IMG/VR virus record: IMGVR_UViG_2617270975_000008
Length of the DNA: 21,665 nt
Reading direction: 5' to 3' (one strand)
Source of the DNA: a virus
Taxonomy: Duplodnaviria; Heunggongvirae; Uroviricota; Caudoviricetes
Shown here piece after piece: positions 6,704-19,405 of the stretch; the first letter of the stretch is position 1, and every line of letters starts with the position of its first letter. The notes below the pieces were generated by a model. The model was not told where the DNA came from. It was given only the letters and a program-made list of their open reading frames with translations, and did not search any database. Made by a program: the position numbers and the translations under genes.

Positions 6704-7039
6704 ATGAAGTGGATTGTGATTGATACAGTTATCCAGCCATCATGCGGAATATCTTTTTCAGTCATATGGAGTAAAATAAAATTAATAATCTGGTATCAAT
6801 CGGATGCTTTCTTACCTCCTGAAAGTATATTTACACTGACTCACACAGGCATCATGCTCAATAACAAAGTGCTGCCTGTAACCATTTACAACGTAGTACC
6901 ATTCAATAAAACATTCTGGAATTTAATCAAAAACAGCCAGGAATGCCCTACAAATACAGATAACGTATTGAATGAATGCTTTAATAACCGTTGCACTCTG
7001 CAAATATGTCCTTATGGGCTAAAACAACAAAGTCCATAA
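6704..7039 (+). CDS. Hypothetical Cys-containing protein (111 aa) in AT-rich cargo at the stx-equivalent locus
   Basis: AAGGAA SD 5-6 nt before ATG; long ORF in AT-rich DNA where stops are frequent; antisense to late operon. Confidence 0.5.
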
Positions 7040-7074
7040 GGAGTTTACTCACATCTGACAAAATCAATATAAAC

Positions 7075-7096
7075 AGCCCCTCCGGAGAGGGGCTGG
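7075..7096 (-). terminator. Stem-loop (cccctc cgga gagggg core) with U-rich tail on minus-strand RNA; candidate terminator
   Basis: Plus strand cagcccctccggagaggggctg preceded by aaaatcaatataaa, giving a T-rich tail after the hairpin on the minus strand. Confidence 0.4.
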
Positions 7097-7486
7097 AGAG
7101 TGGCGCTATGTGCCATTGCATGGTGCCGGGTGCCTCCCGGTGAATTCAGTACCAGCACCTGAATCCGCGATTATCCCATATACCTACTCGCTGATTGCCC
7201 CTCCGCACAGGGGGATTCACCATGCCAGTTTCTTTTAACAAACTCCCCGCAAACCAGACAACAGTCAACCGCCTGAATTGTGAAGTATTTAAAAATTTCT
7301 CCCGCTAACTGATACCCGGCTAACAGTCTGGCGTTTTCTTTTTCAGCAACGGGAAAGCAGCAACCACCACACCCGCCACCAGCACACCGTCAGCCAGCAC
7401 TGACATTATCCGGCTGCTGCAATGCCATTCACAAAAACAGTAAGCAATCACTTTTTACCGTAACCGGTGATAATCCAGATATGTAT

Positions 7487-7950: not shown

Positions 7951-8027
7951 TGGCGCGCTGTACTGGATTCGAACCAGTGACCGATTGCTTAGAAGGCAAT
8001 TGCTCTGTCCGGCTGAGCTAACAACGC
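7951..8027 (-). tRNA. argO: tRNA-Arg (anticodon UCU)
   Basis: Manual cloverleaf: acceptor GCGTTGT/ACAGCGC, anticodon stem ATTGC/GCAAT, loop CTTCTAA, T-loop TTCGAAT, CCA end. Confidence 0.85.
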
Positions 8028-8040
8028 ATGATGCAGATAA

Positions 8041-8117
8041 TGGACCGCCATCGGGGACTTGAACCCCGCGCAGCCAGCTTCGAAGGCTGGCGCTCTATCC
8101 CGATGAGCTAATGGCGG
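8041..8117 (-). tRNA. argN: tRNA-Arg (anticodon UCG)
   Basis: Manual cloverleaf: acceptor CCGCCAT/ATGGCGG, anticodon stem CCAGC/GCTGG, loop CTTCGAA, T-stem CGGGG/CCCCG, CCA end. Confidence 0.85.
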
Positions 8118-8124
8118 TATGTGA

Positions 8125-8200
8125 TGGTGGCCCTTGCTGGATTTGAACCAGCGACCTGGCGATTATGAGTCGCTCGCTCTCACCACTGAGCTAAAGGGCC
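8125..8200 (-). tRNA. ileZ: tRNA with CAU anticodon (Ile2 lysidine-type as in Stx-phage ileZ, or elongator Met)
   Basis: Manual cloverleaf: acceptor GGCCCTT/AAGGGCC, loop CTCATAA, T-stem GCTGG/CCAGC, CCA end; gene order Ile-Arg-Arg matches recalled Stx-phage ileZ-argN-argO. Confidence 0.8.
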
Positions 8201-12574: not shown

Positions 12575-12730
12575 TTACTCCTCAGGTTCGTAAGCTGTGA
12601 AGACAGCGACCTCCGTCTGGCCGGTTCGGATTCGTACCTCGCAGAGGTCTTTCCTCGTTACCAGTGCCGTCACAATGACGGTTAAACAGATGACGATCAG
12701 GGCGATTAGCATCGCCTTTTGCTGCTTCAT
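12575..12730 (-). CDS. hokD: Hok/Gef-family membrane toxin HokD (RelF), 51 aa
   Basis: Hand translation gives MKQQKAMLIALIVICLTVIVTALVTRKDLCEVRIRTGQTEVAVFTAYEPEE; below the 60-aa track cut-off; AGGAGAAG SD. Confidence 0.9.
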   Translation of the reverse strand: MKQQKAMLIALIVICLTVIVTALVTRKDLCEVRIRTGQTEVAVFTAYEPEE

Positions 12731-12801
12731 AGCCTGCTTCTCCTGTCAACGCAAAGCAGAAGTGTCACCTTCGGTGCGAAACAGAGATGTCATGCTTTGG
12801 T

Positions 12802-14280: not shown

Positions 14281-16157
14281 AGTTAACATTACAAGATATA
14301 AGTAATGGACGCACTCCCAATTAGTCTATTTAAATCGCCACGAGTTTAACTGACAACCCATGATCAATTATGAATTGCAACTATTTCTGTAGTCACTTTT
14401 GTGGGGACAGTCCACAAAACTGCCAACTTCCGCTTCTTGCTCTTAGCGGACATTAGCATAGGCTATTTACCATAACGCCTCATTACGCGCACCGCCCAGA
14501 CTGACTCAGCGCGTTTCTGGCATATCCCCAGTAAAACAAGTAACAAACCACCCGAAAATGAACACCAGAAACGCGACTTAAGAATCTACCCTATGAATGG
14601 ATATGCACTCAACCGAATCGATCTTGGTTTCAATCTTTTTTATCGGGATCAGGCTTCTTTTTAGGTAACTTCGGGGGCTTAACTTGCTGATGACTTTGCG
14701 TTCGGCGCGTAAGCCAGGGATGGTCAGCTTTAGGTTTAACATAGTATTTTGAGCGTAAATCAATACGGGCATTATCCACTCGTTCATGGACACTCTTTTC
14801 ATCATCCAGTGGTATAGGCTCCGGGCCATCAACATACTTTTCCCAGCCCAGCGCTTTCCCGTCATACAGAACGTTAATTTCACCGTCAAAGTTCTCGCAT
14901 ACAGTAACAACCGAATGCCTAAGTCGATATCCCCGGCTCTCACTGCGTACCTGAAACGCACTGCTTTTGTACTGGAAAGTGAGATTTTTAGACAGAACGC
15001 GCTTCGCCTGTAGGCTGAAGATATAACCCAGTTCCTCTTCAGAATGGTGCACATCAAGATGAGCATTATCAGTAGTACGAGGCGACGTAGCGAACCGGTT
15101 GTTATAGGCTTCAATAAAGGTCGGCAACCATGCATTTGCTGTTTCAATATCACTGATATTCTGAAGCCGCATTTCTTTGACCAGCCTGTCCTGTAGTGTC
15201 TGATTGGCGCGCTCTACCCGCCCTTTTGCCTGCGGGCTGTTGGCATGGATTGGCTCGATGCCCAGTGTCTTTATCGCACGAGTGAACTGGGTCAGCTCAC
15301 CTTCCCGCTCTGGGTTATTTACCCTGAATATACTGTGTCTATCAGAGTAGAGAGCGAGCGGTACGCCATGATCATTAAGGTAACCCCGGAGGGTTTCCAT
15401 GTAAGCCCGGGTTGTTTCAGCAGGCACAAAACGCAACGCCATCAACGCACTGGTGGCATCATCAATGAAAACGATCAGTGTACATCTGGGGCCTCGATTT
15501 TCAAACCAGTCATGAGGTGAGCCATCAATCTGGATCAGTTCACCGTAAGATGGTCGTCGCATGCGGCGTTGATATATACGGGCAATTTTACGGCGGCGTT
15601 CACGCCATAACCCCTCTTCTATCATCCACTTTCTGAGAGTTTCAACGGATAAAGATAAACCGTGTATCTCGCGCAATTTTTCGCACGCAAACGTAGGTCC
15701 AAAATCAGCGTAACGGCCTTTGAGGAGTGAAATTACTGTTGCTCTGAATTCAGTAGAAAAGGAATTATTAGGACGCTTTCCACGTCGGTGGGAAACCAGA
15801 CCAGAAGGCCCTTCATTTCTATACCGTTGCACCAGACGTTTAACCTGCCGAATAGAAATGCCAATGCGTGCCGCAGCTTGTTCCTGAGTAATATGTCGAT
15901 TAATTGACTCCTGAATAATCTGAAGTCGGTGGAGTTCCTTATGACTCATCGTAACAGTCTCTTTGATCATGAAAAATCCCCCAGAGAATTGTCTGGGGAC
16001 ATTTTAGAATGGTTCAAAGGGGACATTACAGCTTGGTGTTAACACATAGCCTGCTTCTCCTTGCCTTTCGGCACGTAAGAGGCTAACCTACGTGTGTAGA
16101 GCATAGATATGGCCTCAGATTAATGTTAAGCGTCTTGCCGGACGCGTAATGTTAACT
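14281..16157 (-). mobile_element. Candidate insertion sequence carrying a single DDE (rve-type) transposase; 12-bp inverted repeats AGTTAACATTAC; family uncertain (IS481-like architecture)
   Basis: Exact 12-bp inverted match at 14281-14292 and 16146-16157 flanking the transposase; extra TAATGTTAA and TGGGGACA subterminal copies; no target-site duplication found. Confidence 0.45.
14630..15970 (-). CDS. DDE transposase (N-terminal HTH, rve integrase core; IS481-like)
   Basis: 446 aa; HTH ITQEQAAARIGISIRQVKRL; DDE triad candidates in IQIDGSPHDWF, LYSDRHSIF, KGRVERANQTLQ; basic C-tail. Confidence 0.8.
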   Translation of the reverse strand: MIKETVTMSHKELHRLQIIQESINRHITQEQAAARIGISIRQVKRLVQRYRNEGPSGLVSHRRGKRPNNSFSTEFRATVISLLKGRYADFGPTFACEKLREIHGLSLSVETLRKWMIEEGLWRERRRKIARIYQRRMRRPSYGELIQIDGSPHDWFENRGPRCTLIVFIDDATSALMALRFVPAETTRAYMETLRGYLNDHGVPLALYSDRHSIFRVNNPEREGELTQFTRAIKTLGIEPIHANSPQAKGRVERANQTLQDRLVKEMRLQNISDIETANAWLPTFIEAYNNRFATSPRTTDNAHLDVHHSEEELGYIFSLQAKRVLSKNLTFQYKSSAFQVRSESRGYRLRHSVVTVCENFDGEINVLYDGKALGWEKYVDGPEPIPLDDEKSVHERVDNARIDLRSKYYVKPKADHPWLTRRTQSHQQVKPPKLPKKKPDPDKKD

Positions 16158-16258
16158 GGGGCTTTTCTCTATCTGCCTTTTGGTGTTCATGCCTGAGACA
16201 GATAGCCTCAAGCACCCGCTGCAATTCTACTTAACTCTCCTTTTCCCGCAAACCGTTT

Positions 16259-16342
16259 TTATCCCCAGCGGCAAATCGAATACACCACCAGCGCCACCGC
16301 CATCGCAATTCCTACCGTTGTTAATGCTTCAGGCCAGCTCAT
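16259..16342 (-). CDS. Candidate 27-aa hydrophobic peptide (MSWPEALTTVGIAMAVALVVYSICRWG) coupled to the DUF551 gene stop
   Basis: AGGAGG 8 nt upstream of an ATG that overlaps the upstream TGA (ATGA); single predicted TM-like segment; below ORF cut-off. Confidence 0.3.
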   Translation of the reverse strand: MSWPEALTTVGIAMAVALVVYSICRWG

Positions 16343-17241
16343 TGATTCACCTCCTGCGGCGGTTCTGGTAGCGGCATCCAGTGTGACGGTTTCCACGACG
16401 CACCAGGAATTATCCACCCATCATTAGCGTCAGGATGCCCGGGGATGTAAGTAGCCCATTTCATTCGCCAGTCACCTTTCCTGTCAAACTCCACGGCAAC
16501 AAGAACGGCTGTTTTGGTATTCGGCATTCGCTCACTACAGCTTATCCAACCATCCGGAGTTGCCGGAGAGTTGCCCGATAGTGCATTCTGCTCCAGTGAT
16601 GCTTTTACAAACCACGCTGCCTGAACTATAACGCCATGAATCCAGCGCAAATCAGCATCGCGATCTTTCTTTTTCATCTTTTCGCCACTTAAGGCCTTGC
16701 TTATGTGGCTGCGTACCAGGTCTTCATGTAATTCCTTCGCCTCCTCAATGGTGAAACCACCAGGCAGAAGAGCCGGAGTTACCGGAGAGCTGGTTGACGC
16801 TTCCGGGATTTCCCGAAAATTATTGGTTGACGAATTCTTGCTTTCCCGAAAGTTTCCGGACTGAAGCATGGCGGTGCGGCAGGCGTTCCATATTTCGGCA
16901 GCAATATCGCGCTCGCTATCGGTTAATTTGTACGTGGAAACATAGCCAGAGAGCATTTCTACGTTTTCCGGAGTTGCTTCTTCCGGCACTACCGGCGCTG
17001 GCGGGGCGATGCGTCCAAGCAACTTATTTACCTCTTTCGCCATCGCGTCATATTTATCTAAATGGCGATTAGCTTCTAAGCAGACTCGGCGCATCTGATC
17101 TGAGTTAACTCGTTTAACTGGATCTGCTTCCAGCGATGCCAGCGCAATCCGTGCCAGTTCCATTTGTTCACCACGGGTAAGCCCGTTTTCAAGCGGATTT
17201 TTAATGAACAATTCAATACGTTCTTTGGTAATAGTGGTCAT
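16339..17241 (-). CDS. Prophage protein with C-terminal DUF551-like domain
   Basis: 300 aa; AAGGAG SD; C-terminal region (WISCSERMP...WMPLPEPP) resembles DUF551 as recalled. Confidence 0.55.
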   Translation of the reverse strand: MTTITKERIELFIKNPLENGLTRGEQMELARIALASLEADPVKRVNSDQMRRVCLEANRHLDKYDAMAKEVNKLLGRIAPPAPVVPEEATPENVEMLSGYVSTYKLTDSERDIAAEIWNACRTAMLQSGNFRESKNSSTNNFREIPEASTSSPVTPALLPGGFTIEEAKELHEDLVRSHISKALSGEKMKKKDRDADLRWIHGVIVQAAWFVKASLEQNALSGNSPATPDGWISCSERMPNTKTAVLVAVEFDRKGDWRMKWATYIPGHPDANDGWIIPGASWKPSHWMPLPEPPQEVNQ

Positions 17242-17251
17242 GTGTTACTCC

Positions 17252-17515
17252 TTAACCCGCAGTGCTTTCAACTGATGAGGGGAACAAAATCTTTTCATCA
17301 AACCCTGCATTCATATCATGAACAGCAACACACCAATCCATCGACGAACGATTATCAAGAGCCTCCATGATTTCATCCATGCGGCGCAGGTCATACAGGT
17401 AAATGCTTTTATCGCCAATGGTGTAAAAACCAATTTTTTTCGGTGATGGACAGCGATCAAGAACGTCCTGTAATTCGCTCAACCATGCTTGTTCTTTTTT
17501 TGTCAAAGTTGCCAT
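17252..17515 (-). CDS. Hypothetical phage early protein (87 aa)
   Basis: ORF with SD supplied by the conserved junction AAAGGAGAGTGA. Confidence 0.6.
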   Translation of the reverse strand: MATLTKKEQAWLSELQDVLDRCPSPKKIGFYTIGDKSIYLYDLRRMDEIMEALDNRSSMDWCVAVHDMNAGFDEKILFPSSVESTAG

Positions 17516-17516
17516 A

Positions 17517-18008
17517 TCACTCTCCTTTGATGCGAATGCCAGTGGTACTCATTCTCCTGATTTCCCAGAGCACACGAGGAACACCACCGTTTCCGACCGG
17601 ATCGCGTTTACTCCGCAGGGCGACGCTTGATTCCGCCCAGCTTTTTCTTGGAGGAAGCTCTTTCACACGAACAAAACCAGCTGCGCGGAGAGATGCTCCT
17701 GATTCATCTGCCTGGGTGTACGTAATACAACGTTGATAACCCATAGCCTTTGCTGCCCGCCAGACAGCACCATAAAGCGCGCTGTTAGCGTTGCGTTCTC
17801 CTGTGGTACATGTGCGATTTACTTCAAGCGTTAATCCATCGTCCAAATGTCGTGCAACAGGTCTACCGGCTGTCGCCACACCTATCAATTCTCCGGCATC
17901 ATTTCTCAGACCAATGCTGAATTTATGCCCCACCGGGGGTTTATTGTGTCGGTGATGTCTGGATATAAACGCCTTCGCAACACGAAGAGTAACCGGTGAA
18001 ATTTGCAT
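17517..18008 (-). CDS. Hypothetical phage protein (164 aa from MQISP start)
   Basis: The ATG at 18008 has an AAGGAG SD; the 176-aa track ORF start lies inside the upstream gene. Confidence 0.6.
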   Translation of the reverse strand: MQISPVTLRVAKAFISRHHRHNKPPVGHKFSIGLRNDAGELIGVATAGRPVARHLDDGLTLEVNRTCTTGERNANSALYGAVWRAAKAMGYQRCITYTQADESGASLRAAGFVRVKELPPRKSWAESSVALRSKRDPVGNGGVPRVLWEIRRMSTTGIRIKGE

Positions 18009-18010
18009 TC

Positions 18011-18370
18011 TCACTCTCCTTTGATGCCAATGTTTACAGACTGGCAAGCCTCTTTGAGCACCCAGTCAACAGCGTCTTTCCATGCTCCGGTTTCGACTGG
18101 CGGATTCTCACGCTTTACCTGTTCATAGAAACGCACTGCTTTAATCAATCCTTCTGGTGTCAGTGGCACAGGCGGGGCAGTGAATAACGCCTGAATTTCA
18201 TAGTTCGGTCTGTCGTTGCAATCCTCTTTTGTCGGTACATATTTCCAGTCACCAACCCACTGCTTCCCCTGAAAGTCTGTAACGCCTTTTTTCACGTAGC
18301 GATATCGCCATGCCACTGGTTTTGCCTGCCCTGCCTTTTCATGCCCTTCCTGATAATTAATCTCGCTCAT
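18011..18370 (-). CDS. Hypothetical phage protein (119 aa)
   Basis: ORF; ends with the same IKGE-stop junction as the next gene. Confidence 0.6.
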   Translation of the reverse strand: MSEINYQEGHEKAGQAKPVAWRYRYVKKGVTDFQGKQWVGDWKYVPTKEDCNDRPNYEIQALFTAPPVPLTPEGLIKAVRFYEQVKRENPPVETGAWKDAVDWVLKEACQSVNIGIKGE

Positions 18371-18543
18371 TCATCGCCCCACTCATCACAATATGCTTCG
18401 ACCGGTGTTTTCCCTGCTTCATAATCATCACGCCATGCTTCAGCATCAGCGGCACTTCCACCGCGTAACTCTGCATAATCCATTAACAGTTCATGCCATT
18501 CTTCAAAACTGGCGTTATATTTAGTTGAACCAAAATCAGCCAT
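18367..18543 (-). CDS. Small hypothetical acidic protein (58 aa, MADFGSTKYNASFEEWHELL...)
   Basis: Hand-translated; stop overlaps the downstream ATG (ATGA); below ORF cut-off. Confidence 0.4.
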   Translation of the reverse strand: MADFGSTKYNASFEEWHELLMDYAELRGGSAADAEAWRDDYEAGKTPVEAYCDEWGDE

Positions 18544-18718
18544 TTTGTTCTTCCTCTTCGTCTTTTATTTCGTGGTATGAGTAATTGCAGTAGTTAAAGA
18601 AAATATCTTTAGCTTCATCCTGTATTTCATCTGGTGTTGCATCATCATCCACTTCGAATTCATCCTCGAAATCTCCACCGGCTATTCCCGTTTCAATAAT
18701 TATTTTGAATTTTCGCAT
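18536..18718 (-). CDS. Small highly acidic hypothetical protein (60 aa)
   Basis: ORF; D/E-rich (EDEFEVDDDATPDEIQDE, DEEEEQ). Confidence 0.45.
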   Translation of the reverse strand: MRKFKIIIETGIAGGDFEDEFEVDDDATPDEIQDEAKDIFFNYCNYSYHEIKDEEEEQNG

Positions 18719-18846
18719 TTCACTACCGCCCTTTCGGACGGCCTCCTGATGTTCTGAGGGTGCAGGAATCCCTCCGGTTAAGGATTTAATAAAAATCGTT
18801 TCTGATTTAAATCTTCGGTATTTAGTTGTTAGTCGGTTTATAGCCT

Positions 18847-19158
18847 TTATGCTTCGGCCTTATTTCTCAGCCATACACAAACCGGGCCATCTTCGGTGTC
18901 ATGTATTGAACCAATAAACCATCCATTGCCCTCTGGTCGTTCCGGTTCCCATGCAGAAATATCAGCATCACACGCATCAAGGTCAGCACATCCTTCATCT
19001 CTGAAGCAGAGGACGTATTGAAGATTATTTTCCTCCATCCAGGCGTTAAACTCTTCCGTTGAAATATATTCCCGACCGTCACAGAATTTTTCATATTCAG
19101 GATGCGTCCAGCAGCCATATTCATCACGTACTACTGGTATTTCTTTAATTTCATTCAT
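18847..19158 (-). CDS. Hypothetical phage protein (103 aa), Cys/acidic-rich
   Basis: ORF; start overlaps upstream stop. Confidence 0.6.
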   Translation of the reverse strand: MNEIKEIPVVRDEYGCWTHPEYEKFCDGREYISTEEFNAWMEENNLQYVLCFRDEGCADLDACDADISAWEPERPEGNGWFIGSIHDTEDGPVCVWLRNKAEA

Positions 19159-19405
19159 TTCTGTTCTCCCACGTTTTCAGACTTTCACCACAGAACGGAC
19201 AAAATGAAACCCGAACTGGTAATTTAGAAAATTCACCGGAACGCAACATCACAAAATCAGGACCGCGAGTTAAACTCTCATTCCAGATTTTGTATATCAG
19301 CAGACCTTTTCGCATCGTGTATTCAGCATCACGCTCAAGGGACTTTGCCAGTGCTGCACATGGTTCTATCTTGTTGCCATTAACCTGGCATTTTGATTCA
19401 CTCAC
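19151..19405 (-). CDS. Hypothetical phage protein (84 aa) with C-terminal CPFCG motif; GTG start
   Basis: ORF; GTGA overlap with upstream stop. Confidence 0.55.
   Translation of the reverse strand: MSESKCQVNGNKIEPCAALAKSLERDAEYTMRKGLLIYKIWNESLTRGPDFVMLRSGEFSKLPVRVSFCPFCGESLKTWENRNE

Follow-up and report, generated by a model that had tools for sequence, protein, structure and literature searches.

We analysed a 21,665-nt stretch of phage DNA (IMG/VR record IMGVR_UViG_2617270975_000008, Caudoviricetes), here called the window, and in particular a 17-nt sequence which stands at two successive gene junctions within it. The sequence reads GCATCAAAGGAGAGTGA on the coding strand, corresponding to TCACTCTCCTTTGATGC on the plus strand, and its two exact copies, J1 and J2, enclose a single gene encoding a 163-aa protein of the XF1762 family (Table 1). 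This gene is preceded by a gene of 119 aa and followed by one of 87 aa, and the genes of this region, an array of small genes, are all on the minus strand. No third copy of the 17-mer was found in the window, even with three mismatches permitted, and dinucleotide-preserving shuffles of the sequence gave 0.08 matches per shuffle, with two or more matches in 0 of 100. Ungapped extension of the two copies resulted in a direct repeat of 37 nt with 84% identity and a spacing of 494 bp.

The stop codon, the Shine-Dalgarno (SD) sequence and the start codon are arranged alike at both junctions. At J2 the coding strand reads ...AAC ATT GGC ATC AAA GGA GAG TGA GA ATG, leading from the stop of the 119-aa gene to the start of the 163-aa gene, and at J1 it reads ...GGC ATT CGC ATC AAA GGA GAG TGA T ATG, leading from the stop of the 163-aa gene to the start of the 87-aa gene. 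Both upstream proteins terminate in IKGE-stop, and the AAGGAG within these last codons is followed by the next ATG after 7 nt at J2 (ATG at 18008-18006) and after 6 nt at J1 (ATG at 17515-17513). The initial annotation of this DNA had pointed to an identical 17-mer at the two junctions, encoding a shared C-terminus of two unrelated proteins and at the same time supplying the SD of the following gene, and all of this was confirmed from the sequence and its open reading frames.

The two proteins that share the C-terminus are indeed unrelated, as BLASTP of one against the other gave E = 6 and they belong to separate PHROGs (phrog_1384 and phrog_660). Together with the differing NCBIfam families this led us to reject paralogy, that is tandem or segmental duplication of tail-bearing genes, as the origin of the repeat. 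The 163-aa protein has a strong match to phrog_1384, annotated as "Mom-like DNA modification protein", and a weak match to the Pfam family "Mom". In a 97%-similar prophage of E. coli B19374 the Prokaryotic Genome Annotation Pipeline (PGAP) names the equivalent gene "XF1762 family protein". The family core stops near residue 152 of the protein, and the tail MSTTGIRIKGE is appended to it.

Table 1. Genes, junction copies and repeat arms at the locus, with the unit by which the window differs from the empty site
Feature	Position	Strand	Description
Upstream gene, 119 aa (class U3)	18011..18370	minus	phrog_660, no known function; protein ends ...VNIGIKGE
Extended J2 repeat arm	17996..18032	minus	37 nt, 84% identical to 17502-17538; repeat search
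Junction copy J2	18011..18027	minus	exact 17-mer; G-I-K-G-E-TGA ending the 119-aa gene; AAGGAG SD for the XF1762 gene
Cassette gene, 163 aa	17517..18008	minus	XF1762-family/Mom-like; NCBIfam NF045478, E = 5e-61 over residues 3-136; phrog_1384
Indel unit, 494 bp	17517..18010	minus	XF1762 gene plus one junction copy; ends placeable anywhere in the 17-mer repeat
Extended J1 repeat arm	17502..17538	minus	37 nt; repeat search
Junction copy J1	17517..17533	minus	exact 17-mer; R-I-K-G-E-TGA ending the XF1762 gene; AAGGAG SD for the 87-aa gene
Downstream gene, 87 aa (class D1)	17252..17515	minus	phrog_1714, no known function
DUF551 protein, 300 aa	16339-17241	minus	profile match

Folds of 101 nt around each copy were no better than those of shuffled sequences (z = 0.39 and -0.71), no structure occluding the SD was predicted at either copy, and no Rfam family matched at the junction. 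Promoters and terminators in 16300-19200 were predicted in numbers equal to the shuffled expectation, none of them at the repeats. An RNA structural element as well as a promoter or terminator at the junction were rejected on these results.

Two independent viral contigs carry the locus with a single junction copy and no XF1762 gene. Both align to the window with 98.9% identity over 18790-17996 and with 99.1% identity over 17538-17116, the two alignments overlapping by 37 nt in the locus. A three-way alignment gave the order of this empty site as the left flank of J2, the 17-mer and the right flank of J1. Judged from these alignments, the difference between the window and the empty site is a precise indel of 494 bp, bounded by the direct repeat and with its joint inside the 17-mer, which an insertion and a deletion would fit alike.

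The junction is by no means confined to this locus. An exact-match scan found the 17-mer in at least 120 IMG/VR viral contigs, and we analysed 129 occurrences, both window copies included, a set that is chosen by exact match. The 17-mer is in frame as ...IKGE-stop in all 129, and an ATG or GTG follows within 2 nt in 127; stop and start are separated by a single nucleotide in 116 occurrences and by 2 nt in 10. The two occurrences with no start codon after the 17-mer are both lambda-type copies.

In deposited phage genomes, megablast alignments of 17240-18380 begin or end at the two junctions. For HK022, P7, YYZ-2008 and Gally the match is limited to 30-50 nt at the junction and falls on the ends of genes annotated as "Ead/Ea22-like", and in phage lambda the 17-mer is the 3' end of ea22 (29847-30395, complement). 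A query of 107 nt across this lambda junction matched 289 deposited phage genomes, mostly over about 30 nt (...GCTGGCATTCGCATCAAAGGAGAGTGA.AT), including many Shiga toxin (Stx) phages and the hkaG|hkaF junction of HK620, where hkaG is Ea22-like. With a 37-nt consensus the junction was counted at 6795 places in E. coli, spread over 3087 of the 5426 complete genomes, with a median of 2 and a maximum of 11 per genome; 439 of the places are plasmid-borne, and the counts are to be read as a lower bound.

A scan of species-representative genomes gave 113 matches where about 69 were expected by chance. The exact lambda ea22 context (ACGCTGGCATTC...GATCGGTTTTGT) was seen in 32 of these, mostly on contigs of 0.3-1.5 kb and in taxa such as Streptococcus equinus, Prevotella pallens, Streptomyces and Bradyrhizobium. 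Such fragments in unrelated taxa look like lambda DNA contamination of public assemblies, and most of the other matches agree with the number expected by chance.

The junction of lambda itself (NC_001416, about 29797-29903) has the SD and the stop after ea22, and then GATCGG with no start codon and a gap of 191 nt before ea8.5. In other phages a remnant of seven codons, MSRNTGL, is fused to the sequence that lies downstream in lambda (GGTTTGTAAAAGATAACGC); orphan junctions and remnants of this kind were noted in lambda and at five further loci, among them the two lambda-type exceptions mentioned above. The orphan junction of lambda and the MSRNTGL remnants suggest deletions that would have removed a cassette formerly attached there.

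Next to the position of the junction, the assortment of the genes on its two sides is informative. Flanking proteins were clustered, those upstream by the 60 residues next to the conserved tail and those downstream by their residues 4-63. This resulted in 13 upstream and 17 downstream classes, and among the 111 junctions classified on both sides 48 combinations occur, with 122 four-gamete quartets, i.e. cases where two upstream and two downstream classes occur in all four pairings. By means of marker proteins from lambda and from the window we placed about 25 loci in an early-left context, defined as the same strand as exo/bet/xis/int, and about 27 in an early-right context, defined by replication genes, DUF968, RusA and Q. 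Upstream classes U1-U4 and U7 and downstream classes D1, D3, D5, D7 and D12 are found in both operons. NinC was dropped as an early-right marker, being unreliable, as a NinC-like gene is itself among the shuffled cassettes. This gene (class D5, 251 aa, PAPS-reductase family) is joined straight to the linker at eight loci, and besides the nin region, the location of NinC in lambda, it is seen in exo-xis (early-left) arrays.

The repeat had been likened in the initial annotation to the conserved linkers proposed to mediate module exchange in lambdoid phages, and the comparison is supported by our results. Over at least 120 viral contigs, 289 phage genomes and 13 x 17 protein classes the 17-mer stands at junctions in relatives with differing flanks, and the flanking genes are not paralogues.

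As choice by exact match inflates the apparent conservation, we drew two further samples which were anchored on the flanking genes instead. In the sample anchored on the 87-aa gene, the exact 17-mer precedes the gene in 47 of 79 loci, behind at least eight different upstream gene ends, and near variants are found in 5. A second recurrent junction, ..TATAAGGAAAACTGATATG (..YKEN-stop, with AAGGAA as SD), stands before the 87-aa gene in 27 of the 79, behind at least two upstream genes, and several linker families may exist.

The sample anchored on the 119-aa gene consists of 80 loci. About 28 of these genes end in GCATCAAAGGAGAGTGA or one-base variants of it (IKGE, NKGE), 27 in GCATCAAAGGAGGCTGA (IKGG), 10 in GTACCAAAGGAGATTGA (TKGD), 3 in GCAACAAAGGGGGGTGA (NKGG) and 1 in GCATCAAAGGAGACTGA (IKGD), while 12 (about 15%) have an unrelated end, ..EDVLR. 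The SD core CAAAGGAG is invariant in this sample, apart from CAAAGGGG in the three NKGG copies. The tail varies in its amino acids, and the bases 3' of the SD go with the downstream gene.

The XF1762 family gives a similar picture. In 120 homologues the core ends ...GGVPRVLWEIRR/A (...RVLWEIRR in about 110), with 0-10 variable residues after it; MSTTGIRIKGE as a tail is seen only in the E. coli lambdoid versions. Since the tail residues vary and homologues without the tail exist, we consider the tail a graft at the DNA level and not a protein domain. The ending K-G-(E/G/D) is the translation of AAA-GGA-G.., the ribosome-binding site of the next gene, so that ..(I)KGE is largely a by-product; conservation of the amino acids does not exceed that of the nucleotides, and the tail is not part of the family core. 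In five homologues from Enterobacter, Klebsiella and Salmonella we noted the tails ..AAGIKVEVK, ..AAGIQVIEGEDGE, ..TAGIKLQIEGE and ..EGGE, which hints at genus-specific versions of a linker-encoded tail.

We suggest, with a probability of roughly 70%, that the 17-mer is the core of a gene-junction linker in lambdoid accessory arrays, a translation-initiation junction which doubles as a short patch of homology for recombination. The translational role can be read directly from the arrangement at the junction, with a strong SD, AAGGAG, inside the last codons of the upstream gene, then TGA, 1-2 nt and the next ATG, which makes a compact stop/restart signal. For the recombinational role, the same 17 to about 40 nt at many junctions, in co-resident prophages and in infecting phages, would provide a short homology patch, at which whole genes could be swapped at their boundaries with reading frames intact, either by RecA or, with greater probability, by single-strand-annealing recombinases of phages (Red-beta, RecT, Erf). 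That exchange proceeds by homologous recombination within the linker, and that these enzymes act there, we infer from comparison of sequences. In the window, the XF1762/Mom-like gene would then behave as a single-gene cassette, inserted or deleted via a crossover inside the 17-mer, and unrelated proteins would have gained the linker-encoded tail upon first capture into such an array. As the SD core alone is strictly kept in the gene-anchored samples, the conservation of the linker has a translational part, and we therefore see in it a translational and a recombinational component.

Exact identity between junctions which differ on both sides ranges from 17 to 46 nt with a median of 24, and reaches at least 23 nt in 61% of the pairs and at least 31 nt in 11%. 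According to De Paepe et al. 2014 (PMC3945230), efficient pairing takes a segment of at least 23-27 bp with Red-beta and of at least 31-34 bp with RecA, and Rad52-like phage recombinases dominate exchange on short or diverged homologies. Compared with these minima, the identity lengths fall in a range where one would expect the junction to be used by phage annealing proteins and not by RecA.

Several observations weigh against a recombinational role. The repeat in the window is perfect over only 17 nt (37 nt at 84%), which is below the published pairing minima, and the direct-repeat event there would be inefficient, if evidently not impossible. In about 23% of the cross-class junction pairs the shared sequence does not exceed the 17-mer, in a set whose apparent conservation is inflated by the way it was chosen. 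The 87-aa gene has the second junction type, ATAAGGAAAACTGATATG, before it in 27 of 79 loci, and the ends of the 119-aa family are variable, some of them with an unrelated tail. The SD is the sole strictly invariant part, and selection for translation initiation alone could keep much of the similarity. Further, the XF1762 cassette is almost confined to one context, with U3 before it in 7 of 7 cases and D1 after it in 8 of 9, hence this cassette is itself little shuffled. Finally, the evidence for recombination at the linker is comparative only.

These points bear on a long-standing dispute on phage mosaicism, in which homologous exchange at short conserved linkers (reportedly the view of Susskind and Botstein and of Clark) is set against random illegitimate joining followed by selection (reportedly that of Hendrix). 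Following the latter, the linker could be a purely translational signal with no role in recombination, the mosaics arising by illegitimate recombination and selection for joints at functional gene boundaries. Such an explanation draws on the SD core CAAAGGAG being the sole near-invariant segment in the gene-anchored samples, on the other junction types that also serve the 87-aa gene, and on an identity that is often under the pairing minima (17 nt in the window, less than 23 nt in 39% of the cross-class pairs); besides, most mosaic boundaries have no findable conserved sequence (PMC3029335). It does not account well for the repeat-bounded indel of 494 bp, whose joint in the 17-mer is the signature of homology-guided exchange. 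Nor does it readily explain that identity passes beyond the SD into GCATC and the upstream codons (..GCTGGCATTC..), synonymous positions included, behind at least ten unrelated upstream genes, or that an identical tail is grafted onto the XF1762 family, which is otherwise without it. We regard a purely translational signal as improbable, though still the most serious competitor of the dual linker.

It might also be argued that ..GIRIKGE is a functional C-terminal peptide, a tag for degradation, localisation or interaction under selection at the protein level, with the DNA identity as a secondary effect. All Ea22 proteins end in a basic residue plus Gly-Glu (PMC7093339), and AAGIRIKGE is found on many unrelated proteins, as such a tag would predict. 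On the other hand non-synonymous variants (KGG, KGD, TKGD, NKGG) are common while AAAGGAG is nearly fixed, some 110 homologues of XF1762 function with no such tail, the unrelated ending is seen in about 15% of the 119-aa family, and the motif keeps a fixed distance before a start codon. A peptide tag as the main cause was rejected on the tail variants and the tail-less homologues, and seems very unlikely to us.

A site-specific system of the integron attC kind, or a target-site duplication of a small mobile element carrying the XF1762 gene, would fit a single gene between direct repeats with a known empty site, but we find it scarcely credible and rejected it, as the repeat has no inverted-repeat or hairpin character (with the z-scores given above), no integron integrase or transposase lies in or beside the cassette (the only transposase of the window, at 14630-15970, disrupts a hok locus), the same sequence stands at hundreds of ordinary gene junctions including that of lambda ea22, and a repeat of 17-37 nt far exceeds typical target duplications.

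The dual linker can be compared with several known systems. Short conserved boundary sequences are described as foci of recombination in lambdoid phages in those passages of PMC3029335 that cite Susskind & Botstein 1978 and Clark et al. 2001. The junction resembles these in being short, in its nucleotide-level conservation between non-homologous, freely assorting flanks, in its position at gene or module boundaries of the non-structural part of the genome, and in the reticulate combinations of flanks; joints within the sequence are likewise seen, on comparative data only. It differs in bounding single genes instead of functional modules, in lying inside coding sequence, and in being used in both early operons and on phage-plasmids. 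The 2001 paper on HK620 by Clark, Inwood, Cloutier and Dhillon (J Mol Biol 311:657) is reported to list seven boundary sequences. The window junction may already be one of the boundary sequences of that paper, since HK620 carries it at hkaG|hkaF.

The junction shares its geometry with ordinary translationally coupled junctions, having AAGGAG 6-7 nt before the ATG (within the 5-9 nt expected of these) and inside the upstream open reading frame, and the stop 1-2 nt before the start. Ordinary coupled junctions are specific to a gene pair, whereas the linker is identical over 17-40 nt across dozens of unrelated pairs. The relaxed recombination by Rad52-like proteins such as Red-beta, RecT and Erf (PMC3945230) offers an enzymology for exchange over short patches between phages and prophages; that work concerned homologies of hundreds of bp, in contrast to the 17-40 bp of the junction, and the window shows no recombinase gene.

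With integron cassettes the arrays have in common single promoterless genes, a recurring boundary site, and many orders and combinations. Unlike the integron site, the linker has no attC hairpin and no IntI, with no integrase among the neighbouring genes, and it lies within coding sequence and carries an SD; exchange would presumably be general or mediated by single-strand annealing proteins (SSAPs).

For the Ea22 proteins it has been reported that all of them, despite unrelated C-terminal domains, end in "+GE", a motif whose significance was called unknown (Dydecka et al. 2020, PMC7093339). The same sequence is in question here, with lambda ea22 ending in the 17-mer and K/R-G-E as the common end. 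The earlier view is one of a protein motif, while we see in "+GE" a translated downstream SD/linker that extends beyond the Ea22 proteins. The Ea22 end is thus explained by K-G-(E/G/D) being the translation of the ribosome-binding site of the next gene. A full-text literature search for "IRIKGE" found no paper.

The finding is thus a real case of an already proposed mechanism of phage mosaicism, and as an element it is of a known kind. Possible novelties are the quantification, the employment of the linker in both early operons as well as on plasmids, the indel of the XF1762 cassette, and the SD as an explanation of the +GE tail, which would be its shadow in the protein.

More tentatively, and as a doubtful extension of the dual linker, we speculate that it might go beyond a by-product of a good ribosome-binding site and be a selected, quasi-universal docking sequence that turns lambdoid accessory regions into a gene-cassette system, operated by phage SSAPs via homologous recombination and functionally integron-like with no dedicated integrase. 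Were this true, it would cover exo-xis and nin-like arrays as well as phage-plasmids of the P1/P7 type. Mom-like modifiers, the PAPS-reductase-like NinC and DUF551 proteins would move between operons and between the prophages of one cell, with the +GE tails as their cost of admission.

For the linker model the junction makes an unusually clean and abundant test case, being a single defined sequence of 17 to about 40 nt. Over half of the complete E. coli genomes carry it, with about two copies in each, and it has dozens of partner genes and comes with at least one clean cassette indel. Being short enough for synonymous recoding, the linker would also allow its translational and recombinational roles to be separated. 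As +GE is explained as a translated SD/linker, the result suggests caution in the structural and functional interpretation of the C-terminal tails of small phage proteins.

From the PGAP annotation of the B19374 prophage and Pfam scans, the array occupies the early-right operon of a lambdoid prophage. To its 5' side lie a Cro-like regulator, YdaT and replication genes (IstB/DnaC-like, DUF1627, DUF977), and to its 3' side hok, DUF968, RusA, the Q antiterminator, a DNA methyltransferase, tRNAs and lysis genes. By megablast, parts of the window were matched by 5341 of the 5426 complete E. coli genomes and none had more than 60% of it in one place, hence the window is a mosaic which no RefSeq complete genome represents in full.

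A second exact 17-mer repeat in the window, CATAGCCTGCTTCTCCT on the plus strand (AGGAGAAGCAGGCTATG on the coding strand), is found at 12728-12744 and 16045-16061 and represents the SD together with the start of genes for hok-type toxins. An intact Hok/Gef gene of 51 aa (12575-12730) begins with the copy at 12730. The copy at 16047 continues with TGTTAA and then with an insertion encoding a 446-aa transposase with helix-turn-helix and rve_3 domains (14630-15970), and Rfam identifies a full-length sok antitoxin RNA at 16045-16217. The locus at 16 kb looks like a hok/sok system whose toxin gene was severed by an insertion sequence.

The 119-aa gene, otherwise of E. coli type, also has a copy, 94% identical, in PP818812.1 (Actinobacillus phage vB_Apl-pPE4), the host of which is given as Actinobacillus pleuropneumoniae; its presence there may be due to host mis-assignment or contamination. 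Further, at 7065-7254 and 7954-8200 the minus strand carries a small RNA of the STnc100 family (Rfam RF02076, 132 bits) and three tRNA genes, which separate the DNA methyltransferase/Q region from the lysis genes, an arrangement shared with many Stx-type and related prophages.

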